Shown: positions 1 to 15,758, counted from the first letter of the stretch. The stretch is DNA of 64,000 nt from Escherichia coli (GCF_024223415.1 NZ_CP100500.1); one strand, 5' to 3'. Translations and numbers: made by a program. Notes: generated by a model from the letters alone, not told the origin.

Positions 1-712
1 GTCGTTCAACCATATGATCGAGCGTATTGAGGATGTCTTTACCCGCCAGTCCAATTTCTCAGCGGACATCGCCCACGAAATTCGCACACCAATTACGAAT
101 CTCATAACGCAAACCGAAATCGCCCTCAGCCAGTCGCGCAGCCAGAAGGAGCTGGAAGATGTGCTCTACTCTAATCTCGAAGAGCTGACGCGAATGGCGA
201 AAATGGTCAGCGATATGCTGTTTCTCGCTCAGGCCGATAACAACCAGCTAATCCCCGAAAAGAAAATGCTCAACCTGGCGGATGAAATCGGCAAAGTGTT
301 CGATTTTTTCGAGGCGTTAGCGGAAGATCGCGGCGTGGAGTTGCAGTTTGTTGGCGACGAGTGCCAGGTTGCGGGCGATCCGCTGATGCTGCGTCGGGCA
401 TTAAGCAACCTGCTTTCTAATGCCCTGCGTTATACGCCACCCGGAGAGGCTATTGTAGTGCGCTGCCAGACGGTCGAGCATCAGGTGCAAGTTATCGTCG
501 AAAACCCCGGTACTCCCATTGCGCCCGAGCACTTACCGCGATTGTTTGACCGTTTCTACCGCGTTGACCCTTCCCGCCAGCGAAAAGGCGAAGGTAGCGG
601 CATTGGGCTGGCGATAGTGAAATCGATTGTTGTCGCACATAAAGGCACGGTTGCAGTAACGTCAGATGCGCGGGGGACAAGGTTTGTGATTGTGTTGCCG
701 GAGAGGGGGTGA
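1..712 (+). CDS. cusS: sensor histidine kinase CusS, C-terminal portion (5' end upstream of window)
   Basis: Frame open from window start to stop at 712; H-box (SADIAHEIRTP) and HATPase_c motifs (NLLSNALRYT, GSGIGLAIV); synteny with nfrB/nfrA/ybcH/envY as in E. coli K-12. Confidence 0.8.
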   Translation, partial: SFNHMIERIEDVFTRQSNFSADIAHEIRTPITNLITQTEIALSQSRSQKELEDVLYSNLEELTRMAKMVSDMLFLAQADNNQLIPEKKMLNLADEIGKVFDFFEALAEDRGVELQFVGDECQVAGDPLMLRRALSNLLSNALRYTPPGEAIVVRCQTVEHQVQVIVENPGTPIAPEHLPRLFDRFYRVDPSRQRKGEGSGIGLAIVKSIVVAHKGTVAVTSDARGTRFVIVLPERG

Positions 713-1305
713 TTATTAAGTTCAAATTCAGGGCGAGGGTTTACGGCGTTTTTCGCTAAATTTCCATCATTATAAACAAGCCACCTATCATATAAAGCAA
801 TGAATAATTAAATCGCGATTAATCATCATTAATTTTTATATTATTCACCCAATCCATTTATAAAGTGAATTTGATAAATTCCTAATTTAAAATATCCACT
901 ATTGAGCCAGTATTTAACAACGTTAAGATGTGCAATGTGCAGATCATGTTATCAGGGTGGAGCGGTAGCATATATTTTTTAAGCAATCATTCATTTTAAT
1001 GATGTTAATTGGGTTATTTAGTTGTGAATAAAAACATATTATGAATATTGGTTTAACTTTGCGTTTTTGTTACTCGCTGTGATGTGCGCACCTGTCCTGA
1101 ATAACGTCAGGAAACAATAAGTTGAGCTTGTGATTATTTTTTTGACTGAACAGACACCCGTTTCTGTAAAGTAATATTTAAACAAAATTCTCACATAATC
1201 ATAGCATTTTTTGTTCCTTCCCTAATAACGTCTTAAGTCGTCCCGCTTATCTCATTATCCGCAGTTGTACGGTGCGGATTATTATTCATTTTACCGGAGG
1301 TTGCT

Positions 1306-3207
1306 ATGTCAACCGGATTACGTTTCACACTGGAAGTGGACGGCCTGCCACCGGACGCTTTTGCGGTGGTTTCCTTTCATCTCACCCAGTCACTCTCTTC
1401 GCTCTTTTCCCTCGATCTCTCCCTGGTCAGCCAGCAGTTTCTCTCCCTTGAATTCCAGCAGATCCTCGACAAAATGGCCTACCTGACGATATGGCAGGGC
1501 GATGACGTACAGCGCCGGGTGAAAGGTGTGGTGACCTGGTTTGAACTGGGGGAGAACGACAAAAACCAGATGCTGTACAGCATGAAGGTATGCCCGCCGC
1601 TGTGGCGTGCCGGTCTGCGCCAGAACTTCCGTATCTTCCAGAACGAGGACATCAAAAGCATCCTCGGCACGATATTGCAGGAAAACGGGGTGACCGAGTG
1701 GAGTCCGCTGTTCAGTGAACCGCATCCTTCCCGTGAGTTTTGTGTCCAGTACGGTGAGACTGATTACGATTTCCTGTGCCGGATGGCGGCGGAGGAAGGC
1801 ATCTTCTTTTATGAGGAGCATGCTTACAAAAGTACCGACCAGAGCCTGGTGCTGTGCGACACGGTCCGCCATCTGCCCGAATCTTTTGAAATCCCATGGA
1901 ACCCGAACACCCGTACCGAGGTGAGCACCCTCTGCATCAGCCAGTTTCGCTACAGCGCACAAATCCGCCCTTCTTCCGTGGTGACCAAAGACTACACCTT
2001 TAAACGCCCCGGCTGGGCAGGACGTTTTGATCAGGAAGGCCAGCACCAGGATTACCAGCGCACGCAGTATGAGGTGTATGACTACCCCGGACGTTTCAAG
2101 GGCGCCCACGGGCAGAACTTTGCCCGCTGGCAGATGGAGGGCTGGCGAAACAATGCAGAAACCGCGCGGGGAATGAGTCGCTCGCCGGAGATATGGCCGG
2201 GACGGCGAATTGTGCTGACGGGGCATCCGCAGGCGAACCTGAACCGGGAATGGCAGGTGGTGGCAAGTGAACTGCACGGCGAGCAGCCGCAGGCGGTGCC
2301 GGGAAGGCGGGGAGCAGGGACGGCGCTGGAGAACCATTTTGCGGTGATCCCGGCAGACCGGACATGGCGACCCCAGCCGCGGCTAAAACCGCTGGTGGAC
2401 GGTCCGCAGAGCGCCGTCGTGACGGGGCCGGAGGGTGAGGAAATCTTCTGTGATGAACATGGCCGAGTGCGGGTGAAATTCAACTGGGACCGTTATAACC
2501 CGGCAGACCAGGACAGCTCGTGCTGGATCCGTGTGGCACAGGCGTGGGCAGGCACCGGTTTTGGCAACCTGGCGATACCGCGTGTGGGTCAGGAGGTGAT
2601 AGTGGACTTCCTCAACGGCGATCCGGACCAGCCGATCATTATGGGGCGCACCTACCACCAGGAAAACCGCACCCCCGGCAGCCTGCCGGGGACGAAGACG
2701 CAGATGACCATCCGTTCCAAAACGTATATGGGCAGCGGGTTTAATGAGCTGAAGTTTGACGATGCGACAGGGAAAGAACAGGTCTACATCCACGCGCAGA
2801 AGGACATGGATACCGAGGTACTCAACGATCGTACCACCACCGTAAAACACGATCATCGCGAAACCGTAAAAAATGACCAGACGGTCACGATACAGGAAGG
2901 TAATCGCCTTCTTATGGTGGAAAAAGGCGACAAGATCACAGGAGTACGAAAAGGTTCTTTATCTGAGAATGTCTTTCAGGACAGAGGCACGATTGCCGGT
3001 TCGGTGCATGTTGACGCTGTAGACAATGGTGGCGAAGGCAACGGTATACAGGCTTATACGGCAATTAAGGAAATTATGCTGGCCGTGGAGGAAAGCAAAA
3101 TTGCGCTGACGCCGGATGGCATTCAGCTACAGGTCGGGGAATCAACGGTAATCAGGCTGTCGAAGGATGGCATCACCATCGTGGGCGGCTCTGTTTTTAT
3201 CAACTGA
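1306..3207 (+). CDS. vgrG: T6SS spike protein VgrG
   Basis: 633 aa; gp27/gp5-like architecture with conserved gp5-type segment (IPRVGQEVIVDFLNGDPDQPIIMG); good RBS (ggaggttgctATG); followed by Eag chaperone and PAAR-Rhs genes. Confidence 0.9.
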   Translation: MSTGLRFTLEVDGLPPDAFAVVSFHLTQSLSSLFSLDLSLVSQQFLSLEFQQILDKMAYLTIWQGDDVQRRVKGVVTWFELGENDKNQMLYSMKVCPPLWRAGLRQNFRIFQNEDIKSILGTILQENGVTEWSPLFSEPHPSREFCVQYGETDYDFLCRMAAEEGIFFYEEHAYKSTDQSLVLCDTVRHLPESFEIPWNPNTRTEVSTLCISQFRYSAQIRPSSVVTKDYTFKRPGWAGRFDQEGQHQDYQRTQYEVYDYPGRFKGAHGQNFARWQMEGWRNNAETARGMSRSPEIWPGRRIVLTGHPQANLNREWQVVASELHGEQPQAVPGRRGAGTALENHFAVIPADRTWRPQPRLKPLVDGPQSAVVTGPEGEEIFCDEHGRVRVKFNWDRYNPADQDSSCWIRVAQAWAGTGFGNLAIPRVGQEVIVDFLNGDPDQPIIMGRTYHQENRTPGSLPGTKTQMTIRSKTYMGSGFNELKFDDATGKEQVYIHAQKDMDTEVLNDRTTTVKHDHRETVKNDQTVTIQEGNRLLMVEKGDKITGVRKGSLSENVFQDRGTIAGSVHVDAVDNGGEGNGIQAYTAIKEIMLAVEESKIALTPDGIQLQVGESTVIRLSKDGITIVGGSVFIN

Positions 3208-3234
3208 TTCACTCAGATTATCAGGGAGTATTTT

Positions 3235-3696
3235 ATGCAGTTCACTTTTAATGAAGGCCACATTCAACTGCCGTCTCAATGGCAGGATCAGTCAATGCAG
3301 GTCCTGGTGTCCACAGATAACAGTGGCATCAACCTGGTCATTACCCGCGAAGCCGTTCCACAGGGAACCCTGACACCAGAGCTGTACCAGGAAACGCTGG
3401 CGCTGTACCAGGGCAAACTTGATGGGTACACCGCACATGCCTGCCGGGAAATCACTCTGGCAGAGGCCCCGGCCTGGCTGCTGGATTATTCCTGGAACGG
3501 TCCGGAAGATGAAGGGAATCAGGGGCGGATTAGCCAGATAGCCGTATTCCAGCGGCGTGGAGATACGCTGCTGACCTTCACTTTCAGCACCTCCTTATCC
3601 CTGAAGAACAGTCAAAAGACGATGCTGCTGGAGGTGATAAAGAGCTTCACCCCGTTGCCACCGGAGAATGATATCCAAAAGGACCAGCCGCGCTGA
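3235..3696 (+). CDS. DUF1795/Eag-family effector chaperone (EagR-like)
   Basis: 153 aa; N-terminal FNEG...LPSQWQDQS signature typical of Eag chaperones; sits between vgrG and a prePAAR Rhs effector. Confidence 0.65.
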   Translation: MQFTFNEGHIQLPSQWQDQSMQVLVSTDNSGINLVITREAVPQGTLTPELYQETLALYQGKLDGYTAHACREITLAEAPAWLLDYSWNGPEDEGNQGRISQIAVFQRRGDTLLTFTFSTSLSLKNSQKTMLLEVIKSFTPLPPENDIQKDQPR

Positions 3697-3715
3697 CATA
3701 AACGAGGGATAACAC

Positions 3716-6700
3716 ATGAGTGAAGGACCAGGCGGGCCACAGGGAGCGACCGCAGGCGGTACGCTGGCAATGCGAATGCTTTCACAGCAGGCGATGGTCG
3801 CCAGCCAGATGAAACGGGCAGCCAACAACAAAGCCATTGCACAGATGTTGGCATCAAAAAAGTCTGGCCCCCCCGCCGCCAGGCTGGGCGATGAAATTCA
3901 GCACAAGAGTTTTTTGGGGGCGCTGGCAGGGGCCGTGCTGGGGGCGATAGTGACCATCGCAGAAGGTTGCCTGATTATGGCCGCCTGTGCCACCGGCCCT
4001 TATGCGCTGGTTCTGGTGCCTGCGCTGATGTATGCCAGCTATAAGGCGAGTGATTATGTGGAGGAGAAACAGAACCAGCTTGAATCATGGATAAACAGCT
4101 TTTGTGACACGGACGGCGCCATCAATACCGGTTCTGAAAACGTAAAAATTAACGGAAAGCCCGCTGCCAGGGCCGCCGTCACCCTTCCCTCTCCTCCCCC
4201 GCCTGAAGCAATACCCGAAGCCTCACAGGGGGAGCATTCATGGGGTGACATGGCCCTTGACCTGCTTGAATCGGCAGCGGAAAAAGCAGCGCCACTGGCT
4301 AAATCCTGGGGGAACGCTGTTATCACCCTGACGGACAGCAATGCCAGTTTTATGGATCGCGTCAGTGCAGGCGCATCGCTTCTGTTTCCCGCCGGTCCGG
4401 TATTAATGGAGTTTGCCACCATGGTGGGCGGGCGTGGCGAAATCAAAAAAGATGTGGATTTCCCGGAAGCCGGTGAGGACACGGCGCTCTGCGACAAGGA
4501 GAACAAACCACCGAGGATAGCCCAGGGCAGCAGCAACGTCTTTATCAACAATCAGCCTGCCGCGCGCAAGGGCGACAAACTGGAGTGCAGCGCGGCAATC
4601 GTGGAAGGTTCGCCGGACGTCTTTATTGGGGGTGAGCAGGTCACCTATCTGGATATCCAGCCGGAGTTCCCGCCATGGCAGAGAATGATCCTGGGAGGAA
4701 TAACGATAGCCAGCTATCTTCTGCCGCCAGCAGGACTGCTGGGAAAACTGGGGAATCTGGCGAAACTGGGCAAACTGGGAAACCTGCTGGGGAAAAGCGG
4801 GAAGCTGCTGGGCGCAAAACTCGGCGCGTTGCTGGGGAAAACAGGTAAGTCGTTAAAAAGTATTGCCAATAAAGTCATCAGATGGGTAACAGATCCTGTC
4901 GATCCGGTAACCGGCGCGTACTGCGACGAACGTACCGACTTCACCCTGGGCCAGACCCTCCCCCTCTCCTTCACCCGTTTCCACAGTTCTGTACTGCCAC
5001 TGCATGGCCTGACGGGCGTGGGCTGGAGCGACTCCTGGAGCGAATACGCCTGGGTGCGTGAACAGGGAAACCGGGTGGATATCATCAGCCTGGGAGCCAC
5101 GCTGAACTTCGCCTTCGACGGTGAAAGTGATACGGCGGTTAACCCGTATCACGCCCAGTACATTCTGCGCCGCTGCGACGATTACCTGGAGCTGTTCGAC
5201 AGGAATGCACTGAGCAGCCGCTTCTTTTATGACGCCTTTCCGGGAATGCGTCTGCGCCACCCGGTGACTGACGATACCAGCGATGACCGCCTGGCACACA
5301 GCCCCGCAGACCGGATGTACATGCTGGGCGGGATGAGCGACACCGCCAGCAACCGCATCACGTTTGAGCGCGACAGCCAGTACCGGATCACGGGTGTCAG
5401 TCACACCGACGGGATCCGGCTTAAACTGACGTACCACGCCAGCGGCTACCTGAAAGCCATTCACCGCACGGATAACGGCATACAGACGCTGGCGACCTAC
5501 GAACAGGATGCGCGGGGGCGGCTGACAGAAGCGGATGCGCGGCTGGACTACCACCTGTTTTATGAGTACGACGCTGCGGACCGGATCATCCGCTGGTCCG
5601 ATAACGACCAGACGTGGAGCCGTTTCACCTACGATGAACAGGGCCGGTGCGTGACCGTCACCGGGGCGGAGGGCTATTACAACGCCACGCTGGACTATGG
5701 TGACGGCTGCACCACCGTGACGGACGGCAAGGGCATTCACCGTTATTACTATGATCCTGACGGCAATATTCTGCGGGAAGAAGCGCCGGACGGCAGCACC
5801 ACCACGTATGAATGGGATGAATTCCATCACCTGCTGGCCCGCCACTCCCCTGCCAGGCGGGTGGAGAAATTTGAATACAACGCCGCACAGGGTCAGTTAA
5901 GCCGTTACACGGCGGCAGACGGCGCGGAGTGGCAGTACTGCTATGATGAGCGCGGCCTGCTCAGCAACATCACCGACCCTGCCGGGCAGACGTGGACGCA
6001 GCAGTGTGATGAACGCGGCCTGCCGGTAAGTCTGGTGTCGCCACAGGGCGAAGAGACCCGGCTGGCGTACACGCCGCAGGGGCTGCTGTCGGGGATATTC
6101 CGCCAGGATGAACGGCGTCTGGGCATAGAGTACGACCACCACAACCGGCCGGAAACACTCACCGACGTGATGGGCCGTGAACACCACACCGAATACAGCG
6201 GTCACGACCTGCCGGTGAAGATGCGCGGCCCCGGCGGTCAGTCAGTGCGGTTGCAGTGGCAGCAGCACCATAAACTGAGCGGCCTTGAGCGGGCAGGAAC
6301 CGGCGCAGAAGGATTCCGCTATGACCGCCACGGCAACCTGCTGGCGTACACGGACGGTAACGGCGTTGTCTGGACAATGGAATACGGCCCGTTCGATTTG
6401 CCGGTGGCGCGAACGGACGGTGAAGGCCACCGCTGGCAGTACCGCTACGATAAAGACACGCTGCAGCTCACAGAAGTCATTAACCCGCAGGGTGAGTCTT
6501 ATCTTTATATTCTGGACAACTGTGGCCGGGTGACGGAAGAACGTGACTGGGGCGGCGTGGTCTGGCGTTACCGTTATGACGCTGATGGCCTGTGTACCGC
6601 CAGGGTCAACGGCCTGGAGGAAACCATCCTCTACGGCCGGGACGCCGCAGGCCGCCTGGCAGAAGTCATCACGCCGGAAGGTAAAACGCAGTATGCGTAT

Positions 6701-8536
6701 GACAAATCCGGCAGGCTGACGGGTATCTTCAGCCCGGACGGCACATCACAGCGCACCGGCTACGACGAACGCGGGCGGGTGAATGTCACCACTCAGGGCC
6801 GACGGGCCATTGAATACCACTACCCCGACGAACATACCGTCATCCGCTGTATCCTGCCACCGGAAGATGAACGCGACAGACACCCCGATGAATCCCTGCT
6901 GAAAACCACGTACCGCTACAACGCAGCCGGAGAACTGACGGAGGTTATCCTGCCGGGGAATGAGACGCTGACGTTCAGCCGTGATGAGGCAGGACGTGAA
7001 GTGTTCCGGCACAGTAACCGGGGTTTTGCCTGTGAGCAGGGCTGGAATGCAGCCGGCCAGCTTACCAGCCAGCGCGCCGGACTTTTCCCGGAGGAAGCCA
7101 CGTGGGGCGGGCTGGTTCCGTCACTGGTGCGGGAGTACCGTTACGACAGCGCGGGTAATGTGTCAGGCGTCACCAGCCGGGAAGATTACGGACGGGAAAC
7201 ACGGCGGGAATACCGGCTGGACCGGAACGGCCAAGTCACGGCGGTGACAGCCTCAGGCACCGGGCTGGGCTATGGCGAAGGCGATGAGTCCTATGGCTAT
7301 GACAGCTGTGGCTACCTGAAGGCGCAGTCTGCGGGCAGGCACCGGATAAGTGAAGAGACTGACCAGTATGCCGGAGGCCACCGGCTGAAACAGGCCGGAA
7401 ACACGCAGTATGACTATGACGCCGCAGGCCGGATGGTCAGCCGGACAAAACACCGTGACGGCTACCGCCCGGAAACAGAGCGGTTCCGGTGGGACAGCCG
7501 GGACCAGCTGACCGGGTATTGCAGCGCACAGGGTGAGCTGTGGGAATACCGCCACGACGCCAGCGGCAGACGAACAGAGAAACGCTGCGACCGGAAGAAA
7601 ATCCGCTTCACGTATCTGTGGGACGGCGACAGTATTGCGGAAATCCGGGAATACCGCGATGATGAACTGTACAGCGTACGGCACCTGGTGTTTAACGGCT
7701 TTGAGCTGATAAGCCAGCAGTTCAGCCGGGTACGGCAGCCGCACCCGTCCGTGGCTCCGCAGTGGGTGACGCGGACGAATCATGCGGTGAGCGACCTGAC
7801 GGGCCGGCCGCTGATGCTCTTTAACAGTGAAGGTAAAACCGTCTGGCAGCCGGGACAGACCAGCCTGTGGGGGCTGGCACTCAGCCTGCCCGCAGACACA
7901 GACTACCCGGACCCGCGCGGGGAACTGGACCCGGAAGCCGACCCCGGCCTGCTGTATGCGGGACAGTGGCAGGATGCGGAATCCGGGCTGTGCTATAACC
8001 GGTTCCGGTATTACGATCCGGAAACCGGAATGTACCTGGTGAGTGATCCGCTGGGGTTGCAGGGAGGGGAGCAGACTTACCGGTATGTGCCTAATCCTTG
8101 TGGGTATGTTGATCCCTCTGGGTTGGCAATGACTTCGAAAATAGTCAATAAACTACCTTCTGCAAAAGATCTTGCTACAAAAAGGGCCAGTGAGTTATTA
8201 GCAAAGGCAACATCTAATACCCAGCGAAGTAAATTACCAAGGGCAGTTTCAGCTGTTGTTGATAAGAGAACTGGCAAAATATATTATGGAGAAAGTGGCT
8301 GGCCTCACCCAACAGAAATACATCCTACATTACAAAATAATATGCCATCAGCCAGTAAGGAGCGATGGGCAATCGAGAACTGTGCGGAATTTAAAGCTGT
8401 AAATGAAGCTTTGAAGGCAAATGCGAAAATTAGTGATCTTGAAGTTCATACAGTATTGGTAAAAACAGGCGAAGCTTTTCCAATGTGTAAGAATTGTCAA
8501 ATTTCAATATTTGGCGCTGTTGTTACAAGCGGGTGA
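3716..8536 (+). CDS. prePAAR/PAAR-domain Rhs polymorphic toxin (T6SS effector) with deaminase-like C-terminal domain
   Basis: 1606 aa; prePAAR motif AARLGDEIQH, hydrophobic helices, PAAR-like segments (NGKPAARAAV, NNQPAARKGD), long YD-repeat core, DPLGL demarcation motif, then ~140 aa divergent AT-rich tail containing CAE...PMCKNC. Confidence 0.9.
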   Translation: MSEGPGGPQGATAGGTLAMRMLSQQAMVASQMKRAANNKAIAQMLASKKSGPPAARLGDEIQHKSFLGALAGAVLGAIVTIAEGCLIMAACATGPYALVLVPALMYASYKASDYVEEKQNQLESWINSFCDTDGAINTGSENVKINGKPAARAAVTLPSPPPPEAIPEASQGEHSWGDMALDLLESAAEKAAPLAKSWGNAVITLTDSNASFMDRVSAGASLLFPAGPVLMEFATMVGGRGEIKKDVDFPEAGEDTALCDKENKPPRIAQGSSNVFINNQPAARKGDKLECSAAIVEGSPDVFIGGEQVTYLDIQPEFPPWQRMILGGITIASYLLPPAGLLGKLGNLAKLGKLGNLLGKSGKLLGAKLGALLGKTGKSLKSIANKVIRWVTDPVDPVTGAYCDERTDFTLGQTLPLSFTRFHSSVLPLHGLTGVGWSDSWSEYAWVREQGNRVDIISLGATLNFAFDGESDTAVNPYHAQYILRRCDDYLELFDRNALSSRFFYDAFPGMRLRHPVTDDTSDDRLAHSPADRMYMLGGMSDTASNRITFERDSQYRITGVSHTDGIRLKLTYHASGYLKAIHRTDNGIQTLATYEQDARGRLTEADARLDYHLFYEYDAADRIIRWSDNDQTWSRFTYDEQGRCVTVTGAEGYYNATLDYGDGCTTVTDGKGIHRYYYDPDGNILREEAPDGSTTTYEWDEFHHLLARHSPARRVEKFEYNAAQGQLSRYTAADGAEWQYCYDERGLLSNITDPAGQTWTQQCDERGLPVSLVSPQGEETRLAYTPQGLLSGIFRQDERRLGIEYDHHNRPETLTDVMGREHHTEYSGHDLPVKMRGPGGQSVRLQWQQHHKLSGLERAGTGAEGFRYDRHGNLLAYTDGNGVVWTMEYGPFDLPVARTDGEGHRWQYRYDKDTLQLTEVINPQGESYLYILDNCGRVTEERDWGGVVWRYRYDADGLCTARVNGLEETILYGRDAAGRLAEVITPEGKTQYAYDKSGRLTGIFSPDGTSQRTGYDERGRVNVTTQGRRAIEYHYPDEHTVIRCILPPEDERDRHPDESLLKTTYRYNAAGELTEVILPGNETLTFSRDEAGREVFRHSNRGFACEQGWNAAGQLTSQRAGLFPEEATWGGLVPSLVREYRYDSAGNVSGVTSREDYGRETRREYRLDRNGQVTAVTASGTGLGYGEGDESYGYDSCGYLKAQSAGRHRISEETDQYAGGHRLKQAGNTQYDYDAAGRMVSRTKHRDGYRPETERFRWDSRDQLTGYCSAQGELWEYRHDASGRRTEKRCDRKKIRFTYLWDGDSIAEIREYRDDELYSVRHLVFNGFELISQQFSRVRQPHPSVAPQWVTRTNHAVSDLTGRPLMLFNSEGKTVWQPGQTSLWGLALSLPADTDYPDPRGELDPEADPGLLYAGQWQDAESGLCYNRFRYYDPETGMYLVSDPLGLQGGEQTYRYVPNPCGYVDPSGLAMTSKIVNKLPSAKDLATKRASELLAKATSNTQRSKLPRAVSAVVDKRTGKIYYGESGWPHPTEIHPTLQNNMPSASKERWAIENCAEFKAVNEALKANAKISDLEVHTVLVKTGEAFPMCKNCQISIFGAVVTSG

Positions 8537-8540
8537 TTAT

Positions 8541-8978
8541 ATGTGTGAATTAATTAATGAAGCATCAAAATATGGGAAAGTCAATGTAAGAAAGATGGAC
8601 ATTGATTTGTGTTGTAAAAAAATAGAGGAAGAAGGGTATTCTGTTTTCGTTGCGTTCTATGATTTTATAAAAAAATATGGCGGTTTATATGGCTTTCATT
8701 CAGCTTACAAAGACACCACTATAAGTGAGGCTTTTTTTATAGATCCAGAAAGGGCCTCTAATCGCATTTTTATAGAAAGAGTCAATGATTATATTGAGAG
8801 AGCTGGTTACAATATGATTCCTGTTGGCGAGTGCAGTAATGGTCATATCACATTATTATATGGGGAAAATAATGTGATATATGGCGGCTTGGATGATTAT
8901 CTTTGGAAGTATGGGGATAATTTATCTTCATCAATTGATATATTGATTAATGGTAAGGAGGCAGTTGAAATTCCGTAA
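8541..8978 (+). CDS. putative immunity protein for the Rhs C-terminal toxin
   Basis: 145 aa from internal ATG (track ORF 8511..8978), starting 5 nt after rhs stop; AT-rich like the toxin tail; assigned by position only. Confidence 0.55.
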   Translation: MCELINEASKYGKVNVRKMDIDLCCKKIEEEGYSVFVAFYDFIKKYGGLYGFHSAYKDTTISEAFFIDPERASNRIFIERVNDYIERAGYNMIPVGECSNGHITLLYGENNVIYGGLDDYLWKYGDNLSSSIDILINGKEAVEIP

Positions 8979-8986
8979 GGCCAACT

Positions 8987-10909
8987 GCCAGGGCCAACGG
9001 CCTGGAGGAAACCATCCTCAACAGCCGGGACGCCGCAGGCCGCCTGGCAGAAGTCATCTCGCCGGAAGGCAAAACGCAGTATGCGTATGACAAATCCGGC
9101 AGGCTGACGGGTATCTTCAGCCCGGACGGTACATCACAGCGCACCGGCTATGATGAACGCGGGCGGGTGAATGTCACCACTCAGGGCCGACGGGCCATTG
9201 AATACCACTACCCCGATGAACACACCGTCATCCGCTGTATCCTGCCACCGGAAGATGAACGCGACAGACACCCCGATGAATCCCTGCTGAAAACCACATA
9301 CCGCTACAACACCGCCGGAGAACTGACGGAGGTCATTCTGCCGGGGGATGAGACGCTGACGTTCAGCCGTGATGAGGCGGGACGTGAAGTGTTCCGGCAC
9401 AGTAACCGGGGTTTTGCCTGTGAGCAGGGCTGGAATGCAGCCAGCCAGCTTGTCACCCAGCGCGCCGGATTTTTCCCGGAGGAAACCACATGGGGCGGGC
9501 TGCTCCCCTCACTGGTACGGGAGTACCGTTACGACAGCGCGGGCAATGTGTCGGCTGTCACCAGCCGGGAAGATTACGGACGGGAAACACGGCGGGAATA
9601 CCGGCTGGACCGGAACGGCCATGTCACGGCGGTGACAGCCTCAGGCACCGGGCTGGGCTATGGCGAAGGCGATGAGTCCTATGGCTATGACAGCTGCGGC
9701 TACCTGAAGGCGCAGTCTGCGGGCAGGCACCGGATAAGTGAAGAGACTGACCAGTATGCCGGAGGCCACCGGCTGAAACAGGCCGGAAACACGCAGTATG
9801 ACTATGACGCCGCAGGCCGGATGGTCAGCCGGACAAAACACCGTGACGGCTACCGCCCGGAAACAGAGCGGTTCCGGTGGGACAGCCGGGACCAGCTGAC
9901 CGGGTATTGCAGCGCACAGGGTGAGCAGTGGGAATACCGCCACGACGCCAGCGGCAGACGGACGGAAAAACGCTGTGACCGGAAGAAAATCCGTTTTACG
10001 TACCTGTGGGACGGCGACAGTATTGCGGAAATCCGGGAATACCGCGATGATGAACTGTACAGCGTACGGCACCAGGTGTTTAACGGCTTTGAGCTGATAA
10101 GCCAGCAGTTCAGCCGGGTACGGCAGCCGCACCCGTCCGTGGCCCCGCAGTGGGTGACGCGGACGAATCACGCGGTGAGCGACCCGACGGGCCGCCCGCT
10201 GATGCTCTTTAACAGTGAAGGCAAGACGGTCTGGCGGCCGGGGCAGACCAGCCTGTGGGGGCTGGCACTCAGCCTGCCCGCAGACACCGACGACCCGGAC
10301 CCGCGCGGGGAACTGGACGCGGAAGCCGACCCCGGCCTGCTGTATGCAGGACAGTGGCGGGATGGGGAATCCGGGCTGTGCTATAACCGGTTCAGGTACT
10401 ACGAGCCGGAAACCGGAATGTACCTGGTGAGTGATCCACTGGGGTTGCTGGGGGGTGAGCAGACTTACCGGTATGTGCCTAATCCACTGGGTTGGATTGA
10501 CCAGTATGGACTTGCTGGTTGCCCCAGAGCTCTGGCAAGGGCAATGAAACGGGCTAACAGAAACCTAGCTAAGAGTGCCGGATACATGAATCGAGCTTGG
10601 TATAAATTCAAAGGTTCTGCCGCCCATCATATTGTTGCTTGGGATGACCCCCGTGCTTTAGGCGCAAGAAAAATTCTGGAAAAATATGGTATACACATTG
10701 ATTCCGCAGAAAATGGAATATTTTTGAAACATGTAGATCCAAACTCTCTTCAGCCAGGATCTTATCATCGTGTTATTCATACGAACAAATATTATGCTGA
10801 TGTTGAGGCACGACTCGCAGACGCAGCTAAGGCTAATGGGAAACAAGGTGTTCTTGATGAGTTAGATGCTATCAGGGATGACCTGCTTTTTAATAGACTA
10901 ATTTATTAA
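8987..10909 (+). CDS. orphan Rhs C-terminal cassette (core 3' fragment plus alternative toxin domain with AHH nuclease motif)
   Basis: DNA ~8987-10485 is a near-duplicate of main rhs ~6598-8097; after the DPLGL motif the tail differs and contains SAAHHIVAWDD; lacks N-terminus (first ATG at 9167), so may be silent. Confidence 0.7.
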   Translation, partial: ARANGLEETILNSRDAAGRLAEVISPEGKTQYAYDKSGRLTGIFSPDGTSQRTGYDERGRVNVTTQGRRAIEYHYPDEHTVIRCILPPEDERDRHPDESLLKTTYRYNTAGELTEVILPGDETLTFSRDEAGREVFRHSNRGFACEQGWNAASQLVTQRAGFFPEETTWGGLLPSLVREYRYDSAGNVSAVTSREDYGRETRREYRLDRNGHVTAVTASGTGLGYGEGDESYGYDSCGYLKAQSAGRHRISEETDQYAGGHRLKQAGNTQYDYDAAGRMVSRTKHRDGYRPETERFRWDSRDQLTGYCSAQGEQWEYRHDASGRRTEKRCDRKKIRFTYLWDGDSIAEIREYRDDELYSVRHQVFNGFELISQQFSRVRQPHPSVAPQWVTRTNHAVSDPTGRPLMLFNSEGKTVWRPGQTSLWGLALSLPADTDDPDPRGELDAEADPGLLYAGQWRDGESGLCYNRFRYYEPETGMYLVSDPLGLLGGEQTYRYVPNPLGWIDQYGLAGCPRALARAMKRANRNLAKSAGYMNRAWYKFKGSAAHHIVAWDDPRALGARKILEKYGIHIDSAENGIFLKHVDPNSLQPGSYHRVIHTNKYYADVEARLADAAKANGKQGVLDELDAIRDDLLFNRLIY

Positions 10910-10922
10910 TAAGGGCATAGTA

Positions 10923-11456
10923 ATGAATGTTTATTTAATTCGGCATGATGTGGACAACTTCAAGTTTTACTTGCAAGACGAGAGTGACTTTCTTTCAGTT
11001 GCTGCTTTTGATTTTTGTGGAGAGTCTCTATTTAATGGATGGAAACCATACAAAATAGAGCTATTTAAAGGAAAAACTAAAGCTGAGAAATCATTAAACG
11101 GGGATTTTAATTCATCATGTTTTAGTCCAGGATTATTATACGTCGAACATTCTCTCGCAGATGTATTATCTCGTCAGGCAAATGATATTGAGTTATTAAA
11201 AGTAATCACCAGTGATGATCGTGATTTTTATTATGCAAACGTGGTAGGGAAAATACCAGCCTTACATTATAACAACAGACAAGAGCTACAAATTATGAGT
11301 AGAACACAAGAATATAAATTCAATAACTCCATAAATGAAATGTTAATATTTCGTGATAAAACATTACCTTCAAACTATTTTGTTACAGATCGTTTTGTGG
11401 ATATTTTTCAGAATGATTTTCGTGGGGTAATTTTTAAAAAAGTTGGTGAGATATAA
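10923..11456 (+). CDS. putative immunity protein for the orphan Rhs-CT
   Basis: 177 aa, AT-rich, immediately downstream of orphan toxin stop; assigned by position. Confidence 0.5.
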   Translation: MNVYLIRHDVDNFKFYLQDESDFLSVAAFDFCGESLFNGWKPYKIELFKGKTKAEKSLNGDFNSSCFSPGLLYVEHSLADVLSRQANDIELLKVITSDDRDFYYANVVGKIPALHYNNRQELQIMSRTQEYKFNNSINEMLIFRDKTLPSNYFVTDRFVDIFQNDFRGVIFKKVGEI

Positions 11457-11482
11457 CTTAATGCATTGAACATCTAACCCGT

Positions 11483-12015
11483 ACCGCTATGACCGCCACG
11501 GTAACCTGCTGGCGTACACGGACGGTAACGGCGTTGTCTGGACGATGGAATACGGCCCGTTCGATTTGCCGGTCGCGCGAACGGACGGTGAAGGCCACCG
11601 CTGGTGGTACCGCTACGATAAAGACACGCTGCAACTGACAGAAGTCATCAACCCGCAGGGTGAGTCATATCTTTATGTTCTGGATAACTGTGGCCGGGTG
11701 ACGGAAGAGCGTGACTGGGGCGGCGTGGTCTGGCGTTACCGCTATGACGCCGATGGCCTCTGTACCGCCAGGGTCAACGGACTGGAGGAAACCATCCTCT
11801 ACAGCCGGGACGCTGCAGGGCGCCTGGCAGAAGTCATCACGCCGGAAGGGAAAACGCAGTATGCGTATGACAAATCCGGCAGGCTGACGGGTATCTTCAG
11901 CCCGGACGGCATATCACAGCGCACCGGCTATGACGAACGCGGGCGGGTGAATGTCACCACTCAGGGCCGACGGGCAGGGAAAGATCATCAGAAGTTCACT
12001 TTTTGTACTAAATAA
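11483..12015 (+). pseudogene. truncated rhs core fragment
   Basis: ~11483-11975 duplicates main rhs ~6316-6807, then diverges into a short tail before a stop; no toxin domain; abuts the H-repeat element. Confidence 0.7.
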
Positions 12016-13400
12016 TTCGCATTTTATGTTTAAAAATTGAGATATTCCTCATTATCCGAAGCTGTTTTTTATTGCTTATACATGATCAAATACTCCTTAC
12101 ATAATTAAGGAGAACAAAATGGAACTTAAAAAATTGATGGAACATATTTCTATTATCCCCGATTACAGACAAGCCTGGAAAGTGGAACATAAATTATCAG
12201 ATATTCTACTGTGGACTATTTGTGCCGTTATTTCTGGTGCAGAAGGTTGGGAAGATATAGAGGATTTTGGGGAAACACATCTCGATTTTTTGAAGCAATA
12301 TGGTGATTTTGAAAATGGTATTCCTGTTCACGATACCATTGCCAGAGTTGTATCCTGTATCAGTCCTGCAAAATTTCACGAGTGCTTTATTAACTGGATG
12401 CGTGACTGCCATTCTTCAGATGATAAAGACGTCATTGCAATTGATGGAATAACGCTCCGGCACTCTTATGATAAGAGTCGTCGCAGGGGAGCGATTCATG
12501 TCATTAGTGCGTTCTCAACAATGCACAGTCTGGTCCTCGGACAGATCAGGACGGATGAGAAATCTAATGAGATTACAGCTATTCCTGAACTTCTTAACAT
12601 GATGGATATTAAAGGAAAAATCATCACAACTGATGCGATGGGTTGCCAGAAAGATATTGCAGAAAAGATACAAAAACAGGGAGGGGATTATTTATTCGCT
12701 GTAAAGGGAAATCAGGGGCGACTAAATAAAGCCTTTGAGGAAAAATTCCCGCTGAAAGAATTAAATAATCCAGAGCATGACAGTTACGCAATCAGTGAAA
12801 AGAGTCACGGCAGAGAAGAAATCCGTCTTCATATTGTTTACGATGTCCCTGATGAACTTATTGATTTCACGTTTGAATGGAAAGGGCTGAAGAAATTATG
12901 CGTGGCAGTCTCCTTTCGGTCCATAATAGCAGAACAAAAGAAAGAGCCAAAAATGACGGTCAGATATTATATCAGTTCTGCTGATTTAACCGCAGAGAAG
13001 TTCGCCACAGCAATCCGAAACCACTGGCACGTGGAGAATAAGCTGCACTGGCGTCTGGACGTGGTAATGAATGAAGACGACTGCAAAATAAGAAGAGGAA
13101 ATGCAGCAGAATTATTTTCAGGGATACGGCACATTGCTATTAATATTTTGACGAATGATAAGGTATTCAAGGCAGGGTTAAGACGTAAGATGCGAAAAGC
13201 AGCCATGGACAGAAACTATCTGGCGTCAGTCCTTGCGGGGAGCGGGCTTTCGTAATCTTGCCCTGCCTGCTCACCTCCAGGCACTTCCACTACATCATGA
13301 CCTGATCGGTGCCACCACTCCTCTTCACTATGACGTTAACCTCCCCTCCTTGACACCACGCTTTTGTCTACATTCTACGCAAACGGCAACTTTTATAACC
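11976..13400 (+). mobile_element. H-repeat (ISAs1-family) insertion element; boundaries approximate
   Basis: Homology to rhs ends at ~11975; contains the transposase ORF; right end not resolved by eye. Confidence 0.45.
12119..13255 (+). CDS. ISAs1-family transposase (H-repeat-associated protein)
   Basis: 378 aa; classic H-rpt protein sequence ([31 protein letters not shown]...); known association with Rhs elements. Confidence 0.9.
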
Positions 13401-13520
13401 AGTGTAAAAATAACGTGCCGCAATAGTCATACCTATTAATGGTAAAAAGCTGTCACAATTCATAAAAAACCTTAATATACGCCACCCTAAACATAACCAG
13501 CGTTAATGTAAGGTTTTTGT

Positions 13521-15758
13521 GTGGACTGGCTTCTTGATGTTTTTGCTACCTGGCTCTACGGCTTAAAAGTAATCGCGATAACGTTAGCGGTCATCATGTT
13601 CATCAGCGGGCTGGACGATTTTTTTATTGATGTCGTCTACTGGGTACGCCGCATTAAACGCAAGTTGAGTGTTTATCGCCGCTACCCGCGAATGAGTTAC
13701 CGCGAACTGTATAAACCAGATGAAAAACCGTTAGCGATTATGGTTCCGGCGTGGAATGAAACGGGCGTCATCGGCAATATGGCCGAGCTGGCGGCGACCA
13801 CGCTCGACTACGAAAACTATCATATCTTTGTTGGCACCTACCCCAACGACCCGGACACTCAGCGTGATGTTGACGAAGTGTGCGCTCGCTTCCCGAATGT
13901 GCATAAGGTAGTCTGCGCGCGTCCTGGCCCCACCAGCAAAGCCGACTGTCTGAACAACGTGCTGGACGCCATCACCCAGTTTGAGCGTAGCGCCAATTTC
14001 GCATTTGCTGGTTTTATTCTGCATGACGCCGAAGATGTGATTTCACCGATGGAGTTGCGTCTGTTCAACTATCTGGTCGAGCGTAAAGATCTGATTCAGA
14101 TCCCGGTATACCCATTCGAACGCGAATGGACGCACTTCACCAGCATGACTTACATTGATGAGTTTTCAGAACTGCATGGCAAAGATGTTCCGGTGCGTGA
14201 AGCCCTCGCCGGACAAGTACCCAGCGCAGGCGTCGGCACCTGTTTCAGCCGCCGCGCCGTGACCGCTCTGTTAGCTGATGGTGACGGTATTGCTTTCGAC
14301 GTGCAAAGTCTTACTGAAGATTACGACATTGGCTTCCGCCTGAAAGAAAAAGGTATGACGGAAATTTTTGTCCGTTTTCCGGTGGTGGATGAAGCCAAAG
14401 AACGCGAGCAGCGTAAATTTTTACAGCACGCACGGACGTCAAACATGATCTGCGTGCGCGAATATTTCCCCGATACCTTTTCGACTGCGGTTCGACAAAA
14501 ATCCCGCTGGATCATCGGCATTGTTTTCCAGGGCTTTAAAACCCATAAATGGACCTCCAGCCTGACGCTGAACTACTTTCTCTGGCGCGACCGCAAAGGG
14601 GCAATCAGTAACTTTGTCAGCTTCCTCGCGATGCTGGTGATGATCCAGCTTTTGCTGTTGCTGGCGTATGAAAGTTTGTGGCCCGATGCCTGGCATTTCC
14701 TTTCTATTTTTAGCGGCAGCGCATGGTTAATGACCCTGCTGTGGCTAAACTTTGGCTTGATGGTTAACCGCATCGTGCAGCGGGTGATTTTCGTCACTGG
14801 CTACTACGGCCTCACGCAGGGGCTACTATCTGTCCTGCGTCTTTTCTGGGGCAACCTGATTAACTTCATGGCCAACTGGCGCGCGTTAAAACAGGTACTT
14901 CAACACGGCGATCCACGTCGCGTCGCGTGGGATAAAACAACGCATGACTTCCCCAGCGTCACTGGCGATACCCGCTCGTTGCGCCCGTTAGGTCAAATTC
15001 TGCTGGAAAATCAGGTCATCACTGAAGAACAGCTCGATACAGCACTGCGTAATCGCGTCGAAGGTCTACGCCTGGGCGGTTCAATGCTGATGCAGGGGCT
15101 GATTAGCGCCGAGCAGCTGGCACAGGCGCTGGCAGAGCAAAACGGCGTGGCGTGGGAATCCATCGATGCCTGGCAGATCCCGTCCTCGCTGATTGCCGAA
15201 ATGCCGGCCTCCGTGGCGCTGCATTATGCGGTACTGCCGCTGCGTCTGGAAAATGATGAGTTAATTGTCGGCAGTGAAGATGGTATTGACCCGGTTTCGC
15301 TGGCGGCCCTGACGCGTAAAGTCGGACGCAAAGTGCGTTACGTCATTGTTCTGCGGGGACAAATTGTCACGGGGTTACGTCACTGGTATGCACGCCGACG
15401 CGGTCACGATCCGCGGGCAATGTTGTACAATGCGGTTCAGCATCAGTGGCTCACGGAACAGCAGGCCGGTGAAATCTGGCGGCAATATGTGCCGCATCAG
15501 TTCCTGTTCGCCGAAATACTGACCACGCTCGGTCATATTAATCGTTCAGCAATTAACGTGTTGTTATTGCGCCATGAACGCAGTTCTCTGCCGCTCGGCA
15601 AGTTTTTGGTCACCGAAGGCGTTATCAGCCAGGAAACGTTGGATCGCGTCCTGACAATTCAACGCGAATTACAAGTTTCGATGCAATCACTATTACTCAA
15701 AGCAGGTTTAAACACAGAACAGGTTGCGCAACTGGAGTCCGAAAATGAAGGAGAATAA
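13521..15758 (+). CDS. nfrB: glycosyltransferase NfrB (phage N4 adsorption protein B)
   Basis: 745 aa, GTG start; family-2 glycosyltransferase with N-terminal membrane helices; synteny with nfrA. Confidence 0.9.
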   Translation: MDWLLDVFATWLYGLKVIAITLAVIMFISGLDDFFIDVVYWVRRIKRKLSVYRRYPRMSYRELYKPDEKPLAIMVPAWNETGVIGNMAELAATTLDYENYHIFVGTYPNDPDTQRDVDEVCARFPNVHKVVCARPGPTSKADCLNNVLDAITQFERSANFAFAGFILHDAEDVISPMELRLFNYLVERKDLIQIPVYPFEREWTHFTSMTYIDEFSELHGKDVPVREALAGQVPSAGVGTCFSRRAVTALLADGDGIAFDVQSLTEDYDIGFRLKEKGMTEIFVRFPVVDEAKEREQRKFLQHARTSNMICVREYFPDTFSTAVRQKSRWIIGIVFQGFKTHKWTSSLTLNYFLWRDRKGAISNFVSFLAMLVMIQLLLLLAYESLWPDAWHFLSIFSGSAWLMTLLWLNFGLMVNRIVQRVIFVTGYYGLTQGLLSVLRLFWGNLINFMANWRALKQVLQHGDPRRVAWDKTTHDFPSVTGDTRSLRPLGQILLENQVITEEQLDTALRNRVEGLRLGGSMLMQGLISAEQLAQALAEQNGVAWESIDAWQIPSSLIAEMPASVALHYAVLPLRLENDELIVGSEDGIDPVSLAALTRKVGRKVRYVIVLRGQIVTGLRHWYARRRGHDPRAMLYNAVQHQWLTEQQAGEIWRQYVPHQFLFAEILTTLGHINRSAINVLLLRHERSSLPLGKFLVTEGVISQETLDRVLTIQRELQVSMQSLLLKAGLNTEQVAQLESENEGE

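Follow-up and report, generated by a model that had tools for sequence, protein, structure and literature searches.

The DNA between cusS and nfrB in the window, a stretch of 64,000 nucleotides of Escherichia coli DNA analyzed here at its full length, forms an island of ~12.7 kb (positions 693 to 13378) that carries a vgrG spike gene, an eag-type chaperone gene, and a full-length rhs effector gene of a type VI secretion system (T6SS), followed by orphan rhs cassettes and an insertion sequence. This island is very probably one allele of a known accessory T6SS effector locus of E. coli, described as Rhs "position 4," as the vgrG1 island of enterohemorrhagic E. coli (EHEC), and as the VgrGO1-EagR-Rhs-CT module, and it would deliver a deaminase toxin tip via the T6SS encoded next to aspV. 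Both the architecture of such islands and their mode of action are already known for E. coli and its close relatives. The sequences themselves show the genes of the island with their domains and motifs, its junctions, how frequent it is in the population, and that a related core T6SS cluster is present. The first 16 kb of the window matched the chromosome of E. coli KV7 (NZ_LT795502.1, from 3,488,460) at 100%. KV7 is an extended-spectrum β-lactamase (ESBL)-producing O27 strain of phylogroup D, isolated from a healthy Danish pig and sequenced with PacBio and MiSeq (PMC5609401). Unless noted, coordinates are those of the window, and all island features described lie on its plus strand except for a right-end remnant, to which no strand is assigned.

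The island encodes a complete spike, chaperone, and effector set. The 633-amino-acid (aa) product of vgrG (1306 to 3207) matched TIGR03361 (E = 1.1e-189) as well as the Pfam families Phage_GPD (2e-75), Phage_base_V, and Gp5_trimer_C. It is a minimal spike, composed of gp27-like, gp5 OB, and gp5 C-terminal trimerization domains plus a C terminus of ~100 aa. The next gene (3235 to 3696), labeled "DcrB-related protein" in RefSeq, encodes an eag/eagR-type chaperone of 153 aa that belongs to the DcrB/DUF1795 family (Pfam PF08786, i-E = 6e-26). It sits between vgrG and rhs, as z0706 does (PMC7216683), and ends 19 nucleotides (nt) before the rhs start.

The full-length rhs gene (3716 to 8536) encodes 1606 aa, in which Pfam and NCBIfam profiles together with a motif and hydropathy scan delineated prePAAR, PAAR, DUF6531, RHS repeats, and a YwqJ-like tip. 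The prePAAR motif AARLGDEIQH is located at residue 54 (Pfam prePAAR_I, i-E = 1.5e-4), and Kyte-Doolittle peaks mark hydrophobic segments at residues 63 to 105 and 324 to 343. The PAAR domain is split, with one part at residues 267 to 310 (Pfam PAAR_motif, i-E = 1e-9) and a weak match at 132 to 153; NF033420 also matched the protein, below its curated cutoff. Farther along, DUF6531 with PVDPVTG at residue 394 is accompanied by 11 stretches of YD/RHS repeats (TIGR01643) and an RHS-associated core (TIGR03696, E = 1.6e-19). Two autoproteolysis-type DPxGL motifs, DPLGL at residue 1444 and DPSGL at residue 1466, precede the toxin, which starts at about residue 1471. The closest solved relative of the protein is Tre23 (PDB 7pq5, E = 7e-255, residues 254 to 1476).

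The toxin tip (8126 to 8536) is a YwqJ-like deaminase domain that matched Pfam PF14431 (i-E = 3.5e-5) over model positions 5 to 130 of 138. Two motifs, CAE at residue 1556 and PMCKNC at residue 1589, constitute the zinc/catalytic signature [HC]xE...PCxxC. An exhaustive HMMER search with the tip recovered 384 cluster representatives at E ≤ 1e-3, in which the domain was always C-terminal, on carriers of 130 to 4077 aa. Among the 151 relatives listed, 87 had CxE...PxCxxC and none had HxE, and the median spacing was 33 residues. A word-indexed protein database search with the tip gave two matches only; this search was uninformative, because Rhs proteins that differ only in their tips can fall into one 90% cluster. 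Judged from its sequence, the tip belongs to a polymorphic-toxin deaminase family that is widespread, and deaminase activity is its predicted function. Five nucleotides past the rhs stop begins a gene (8541 to 8978) for a SUKH-3 protein of 145 aa, as given by both Pfam (i-E = 2.9e-11) and the RefSeq annotation. We infer that this protein is the cognate immunity protein for the deaminase tip.

The deaminase tip is rare in its intact form, whereas its immunity gene is widely kept. In a collection of 5426 complete E. coli genomes, which is skewed to clinical lineages and yields descriptive counts, the complete deaminase tip and SUKH-3 cassette (8090 to 8980) was found in four, namely KV7, SCU-316, O78 strain 3, and NCTC9112, and all four have vgrG, eag, and the 1606-aa rhs as intact open reading frames (ORFs). 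Any match to this cassette was seen in 365 genomes; we estimate, from evenly spaced rows of the ranking, that about two-thirds of these keep no more of the toxin than its final ~125 bp, together with the SUKH-3 gene. In such genomes, for instance IAI1, another active tip precedes the remnant (the equivalent of window positions 8410 to 8980). A second cassette of the island, consisting of an AHH nuclease tip and a linked ORF, occurs in 88 of the 5426 genomes. Displaced tips and orphan immunity genes are a pattern already described for Rhs loci, and the rare intact tip alongside a widely kept immunity gene illustrates the turnover of toxin tips.

Neither the ORF list nor the RefSeq annotation placed hcp or any other T6SS core gene anywhere in the 64-kb window, the island included. 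The first-pass annotation had described a spike, chaperone, and effector set lacking hcp and core genes, and the profile matches and the annotation of the whole window bore this out; it had also called for a search of the same genome for a T6SS core cluster. That cluster was found in KV7 next to aspV, ~425 kb from the island, between yafV and aspV/dnaQ (3,914,352 to 3,937,760 of NZ_LT795502.1). It comprises hcp, vgrG, rhs, tssB, tssC, tssE, tssF, tssG, tagH, tssJ, tssK, tssL, tssH, vasI, tssA, and tssM, with a VasL-domain gene and a second hcp in addition. The VgrG of the island and that of the aspV cluster are 93% identical over residues 1 to 529 and unrelated beyond; hence, the island spike fits the aspV machine and differs from the resident spike in its cargo-binding end. 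A cluster of the aspV type, scored as at least 80% of the tssBC query, was present in 2183 genomes, and another ~580 genomes, such as the B2 strain O18, carry a 72%-identical tssBC allele at the same locus. In O18 (NZ_CP007275.1, 4,274,996 to 4,306,718), the T6SS genes between yafV and aspV follow the same order, with ~72% DNA identity in tssBC, and a DUF2169/PAAR-like set stands in place of Rhs as cluster cargo. The 72%-identical matches were also considered as a second T6SS; this was rejected, since in the B2 strains they sit at the aspV locus itself, as a divergent allele.

Several points weigh against delivery of the deaminase tip by this machine, some of them specific to KV7. First, tssG of the KV7 cluster (record positions 3,922,441 to 3,923,500) is annotated as frameshifted, and comparison with strain EC1515 revealed a clean 23-bp deletion. 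The deletion ends TssG at residue 325 of 360, removing residues 326 to 360 and with them conserved positions 280 to 300 of the 300 in model TIGR03347, i.e., the last 21. Seven genomes that were sequenced independently have it and 2107 do not, so the deletion is genuine rather than an error of sequencing. Because TssG is truncated, firing may be impaired in KV7, and servicing of the island in this strain is not assured. The VasL-domain gene of the KV7 cluster is frameshifted as well. Second, EHEC VgrG1 and RhsF were undetected even with promoter swapping (PMC13141884), so orphan vgrG islands may be silent in laboratory conditions. Third, published accounts disagree on the servicing system: the EHEC equivalent of the aspV cluster is called T6SS-2 (PMC7216683), whereas VgrGO1-dependent killing is ascribed to T6SS1 (bioRxiv 10.1101/2024.03.05.583533). 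Given this disagreement, we left the name of the servicing system open and relied on the sequence relationship. Fourth, the PF14431 match, while covering nearly the full length of the model, has a low score, and a PDB sequence search with the toxin tip returned no solved relative. The earlier proposal that the island must be serviced by a T6SS encoded elsewhere was therefore upheld as far as the existence of the aspV core cluster and the kinship of the two spikes are concerned, and it is not assured for KV7 itself, where deployment of the island effector appears uncertain.

Two side observations concern the same genes. Of the four genomes that have the deaminase cassette intact, at least three (KV7, SCU-316, and O78 strain 3) are among the listed carriers of the tssG deletion, and NCTC9112 is not among the five carriers listed, of seven counted. 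The VasL-domain gene is also annotated as frameshifted in EC1515, which comes from an unrelated source; the gene may be a pseudogene in many strains, or the frameshift may be a quirk of annotation.

The tssG deletion raises the possibility that the island is a disarmed relic in KV7, its Rhs unfireable with a truncated TssG, and that it serves as a store of immunity genes (SUKH-3 and the AHH-linked ORF) and of recombination substrates. We consider this possible, though on balance doubtful. Besides the verified deletion and the loss of conserved TIGR03347 positions, it draws on the wide retention of orphan immunity genes at the cusS-nfrB locus and on the T6SS complement of KV7, in which the aspV-type T6SS is single copy and a chimeric query detected no CFT073-type (phospholipase-associated) tssC, the Francisella-like third type not having been searched. 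However, the intact vgrG, eag, and rhs genes in all four tip-bearing genomes argue for recent or continuing selection; moreover, the functional effect of losing the last 35 TssG residues in KV7 is a prediction. The only intact copies of the tip among the 5426 genomes are of the KV7 lineage. More speculatively, the tip might be an uncharacterized deaminase whose substrate is unusual or which is mutagenic, formerly common enough to select widespread immunity and now kept either by a T6SS able to work with the truncated TssG or through a T6SS-independent role. This we regard as a long shot.

The junctions and their distribution bear on how the island came to its site. The first-pass annotation had taken cusS and nfrB as neighbors in K-12 and placed ~12.7 kb of inserted DNA between them, at 713 to 13400. 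In K-12 MG1655, nfrB indeed adjoins cusS, with a spacer of 149 bp, and in the RefSeq annotation cusS ends at window position 712 and nfrB starts at 13521. When the two sequences were read side by side, K-12 homology ended at ~692/693 and restarted at 13379 (caaacggcaac...); thus, relative to K-12, the ~12.7 kb from 693 to 13378 stands in place of 27 bp of the cusS-nfrB junction. The left break point lies within the final six codons of cusS. Nearly all codons differ there (window positions 693 to 712), with ...VIVLPERG in KV7 versus ...VITLPA in K-12, and the CusS protein of KV7 is two residues longer than that of K-12. Upstream, the 3' part of cusS is ~94 to 95% identical between the occupied and empty allele classes. 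The junction is not a clean insertion, the 3' end of cusS differing too. A 113-bp remnant (13266 to 13378) separates the insertion sequence from the restart of K-12 homology.

Across the genome collection, the occupied left junction (window positions 300 to 1700, comprising the cusS 3' end, the leader, and the vgrG 5' end) was present in 2629 of 5426 genomes and the empty K-12 junction in 2340, a junction being counted as present at ≥80% coverage in one place per genome; the remaining ~460 genomes have other junction states, e.g., a partial island. The empty site is seen in K-12, ST131, and other genomes, while IAI1 and O157:H7 carry the same island with the same flanks. Neither state of the cusS-nfrB site is the exception, and the island is ordinary accessory content at a known hotspot. 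"Inserted" accordingly applies only relative to K-12, the site being polymorphic. The first-pass annotation had also reasoned that the presence of the island in most strains would reduce it to ordinary content; alignment placed it in about half, and a special status for the island did not survive the count.

A recent arrival of the island as a mobile element, brought by an ISAs1 element or an integrase into an ancestral, K-12-like cusS-nfrB junction, is quite unlikely. Apart from the empty sites, what speaks for it is an intact transposase at the right end and an atypical composition, with an AT-rich leader and tips around a G+C-rich core. The insertion sequence in question is an ISAs1-family element (ISEc1-like "H-repeat") of 1291 bp (11975 to 13265) with imperfect terminal repeats CAGGGnAAGAT; in the sequence, its two ends read CAGGGAAAGAT and ATCTTGCCCTG, and no target duplication was seen. 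Its transposase gene (12119 to 13255) is intact and encodes 378 aa (NF033564, E = 3.5e-122). As for composition, the Rhs core has 60 to 62% G+C, and the tips and immunity genes have 31 to 42%. A G+C-rich core with AT-rich tips is the classic Rhs pattern. Repeat analysis and the RefSeq annotation, in which direct repeats, tRNA genes, and an integrase were looked for at the island ends, yielded none of them, and on this ground a recent insertion was rejected. Furthermore, the insertion sequence is a single copy internal to the right end, and it occupies the same place, with the same junctions, in phylogroups B1 (IAI1), E (O157:H7), and D (KV7; PMC5609401). About half of the genomes are occupied, the mismatch in the last six cusS codons is more in keeping with alleles that diverged or recombined long ago than with a clean insertion of recent date, and the site has been treated as a conserved chromosomal locus (Jackson et al., PMC2935791). 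Least likely of all is a T6SS-independent Rhs, such as an intracellular toxin or one using another route, as suggested by the Rhs elements that K-12 retains without any T6SS (PMC6730261) and by the possibly defective T6SS of KV7, because the protein has prePAAR and PAAR domains, its gene directly follows those for VgrG and the Eag chaperone, and its closest solved relative, Tre23, is a T6SS-mounted Rhs.

Downstream of the SUKH-3 gene, the island continues with displaced Rhs modules. Orphan cassette 1 (8984 to 10909) is an N-truncated Rhs core with an AHH (HNH/EndoVII) nuclease tip (Pfam AHH PF14412, i-E = 5e-15); the AHH motif is at residue 486 of the orphan ORF, and DPLGL is also present. It has no start codon of its own before an internal GTG at 9167, and RefSeq records it as a pseudogene "missing N-terminus." Repeat analysis showed its core (8987 to 10487) to be 95.5% identical to positions 6599 to 8099 of the full-length rhs gene, and the DNA of the latter departs from the orphan copy at about 8098. 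The linked ORF (10923 to 11456; 177 aa, 31% G+C) is a putative immunity gene by position only, with no Pfam or NCBIfam family matched. Two "Serglycin" matches in the profile scan of this ORF, SUKH-3, and Eag were discarded as artefacts of the Gly-Ser linkers that joined the three proteins. Orphan fragment 2 (11482 to 11974) derives from the interior of an Rhs core, with 94.2% identity to positions ~6315 to 6807, and is truncated by the insertion sequence; RefSeq lists it as a pseudogene without either end. The orphan cassettes and H-repeat reported at first pass thus correspond to the AHH cassette, the second core fragment, and the ISAs1 element.

Upstream of vgrG, the leader (713 to 1305) had been described as AT-rich and ORF-free, and its 593 bp do have 32.5% G+C and no ORF longer than 51 aa. 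It is presumed to be a promoter or regulatory region. No Rfam match was found over window positions 1 to 14000 at E ≤ 0.1, and a sigma-70 and terminator scan of the leader gave four promoter-like sites versus 2.8 expected from shuffles and zero terminators. Because there is no Rfam match and the promoter-like sites are not above chance, no regulatory element can be assigned in the leader. Its vgrG-proximal ~440 bp (865 to 1305) are 87% identical to the leader of a yncH-vgrG-Rhs-ISAs1 island at the RhsE locus of another strain, which suggests a regulatory region common to orphan vgrG islands. The aspV cluster does not have this leader in its hcp-vgrG spacer, where homology begins only ~12 nt upstream of the ATG. 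Outside the island, the window contains nfrA, ybcH, envY, ompT, and a lambdoid prophage. The prophage (~23800 to 64000) looks complete and occupies the DLP12 site downstream of ompT; its content runs from terminase to tail fibers and includes lysis genes, a Q antiterminator, and the integrase gene intD.

For an accessory effector locus served by the aspV-linked T6SS, we infer secretion, toxicity, immunity, and recombination along the following lines. The island VgrG would act as an alternative spike for the aspV-linked machine ~425 kb away. The Eag chaperone would bind and shield the prePAAR/transmembrane N terminus of Rhs, and the PAAR domain would cap the tip of VgrG. The YD-repeat shell is expected to hold the C-terminal toxin, with autoproteolysis at the DPxGL motifs freeing it, so that contraction of the sheath could carry the toxin into neighboring bacteria. 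The loaded toxin would be a YwqJ-like (CxE...PCxxC) nucleic acid deaminase, against which the neighboring SUKH-3 protein would protect the producer. The immunity gene of the AHH cassette could guard against kin bearing the AHH toxin. Finally, the 95.5%-identical core of 1.5 kb could allow homologous recombination to swap the AHH tip onto the full-length Rhs, as in the C-terminal displacement model. The island carries little weight as a discovery; its value lies in showing a vgrG-eag-Rhs island cleanly and fully intact, with two orphan modules stacked after it. For KV7, a good colonizer of the pig gut and an ESBL producer, it represents interbacterial weaponry whose launcher may be broken.

The site itself is long known. 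Jackson et al. (2009, BMC Genomics 10:584, PMC2935791) described eleven E. coli Rhs loci, with position 4 located between nfrB and cusS and occupied by a Clade IV rhs. The island in the window shares this position and its flanks, as well as the order of a full-length rhs followed by displaced C-terminal tips that the C-terminal displacement model describes. Their survey was published before such loci were read in terms of the T6SS, Eag, and toxin domains, and the tips of KV7 (deaminase and AHH) are one allele of many. The "vgrG1 island" of EHEC strain EDL933 consists of z0707 (vgrG1), z0706 (DUF1795/eagR), z0705 (rhsF), and z0702 (rhsG, a 444-aa metallopeptidase orphan) (PMC7216683); it has the same site and gene order and the same terminal ISAs1, and it likewise lies outside the aspV T6SS cluster (PMC7216683, PMC13141884). 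Consistently, O157:H7 strain PV15-279 encodes, from cusS to nfrB, VgrG, a DcrB-related protein, Rhs, a 444-aa zincin-like toxin, and ISAs1. The tips differ, RhsF of O157:H7 ending in an unassigned tip and the orphan there being a zincin-like metallopeptidase; moreover, the main rhs gene is frameshifted in the O157:H7 strain examined, whereas that of KV7 is intact with a deaminase tip. IAI1 has the same island with a tip of restriction endonuclease fold.

Function has been reported for closely related modules. The VgrGO1-EagR-Rhs-CT modules of Shiga toxin-producing and other E. coli show the same vgrG-eagR-PAAR-Rhs-CT-immunity layout, with deaminase and AHH tips reported (PMC6730261). Both vgrGO1 and eagR are reported to be needed for Rhs-CT delivery (Ma et al. 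2017, Environ Microbiol 19:345, per PMC6730261 and bioRxiv 10.1101/2024.03.05.583533), and T6SS-dependent secretion or killing has been reported for related islands (Ma et al. 2017, per PMC6730261). The deaminase reported for the Ma et al. module is of the MafB19 type, whereas the KV7 tip scores as YwqJ-like, and VgrGO1 is likened to the island VgrG by description. Among PF14431 YwqJ-like polymorphic deaminase toxins, a C-terminal tip, a Cys/His-x-Glu plus PCxxC signature, and a small immunity partner are features found here as well. DddA (PDB 6u08) is also a deaminase toxin, of another clade, and the only match to it falls in the Rhs-type linker and not in the deaminase domain. For the mounted effector, the nearest parallel is Tre23 of Photorhabdus laumondii (7pq5), for which VgrG-EagR-Rhs mounting and autocleavage have been solved (PMC8636562). 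Like the island Rhs, it is a PAAR-Rhs protein served by an Eag chaperone, and it has a cage structure and autocleavage motifs at both termini; it belongs to another species, and its tip is an ADP-ribosyltransferase (PMC8661411), in contrast to the tip of the island Rhs.

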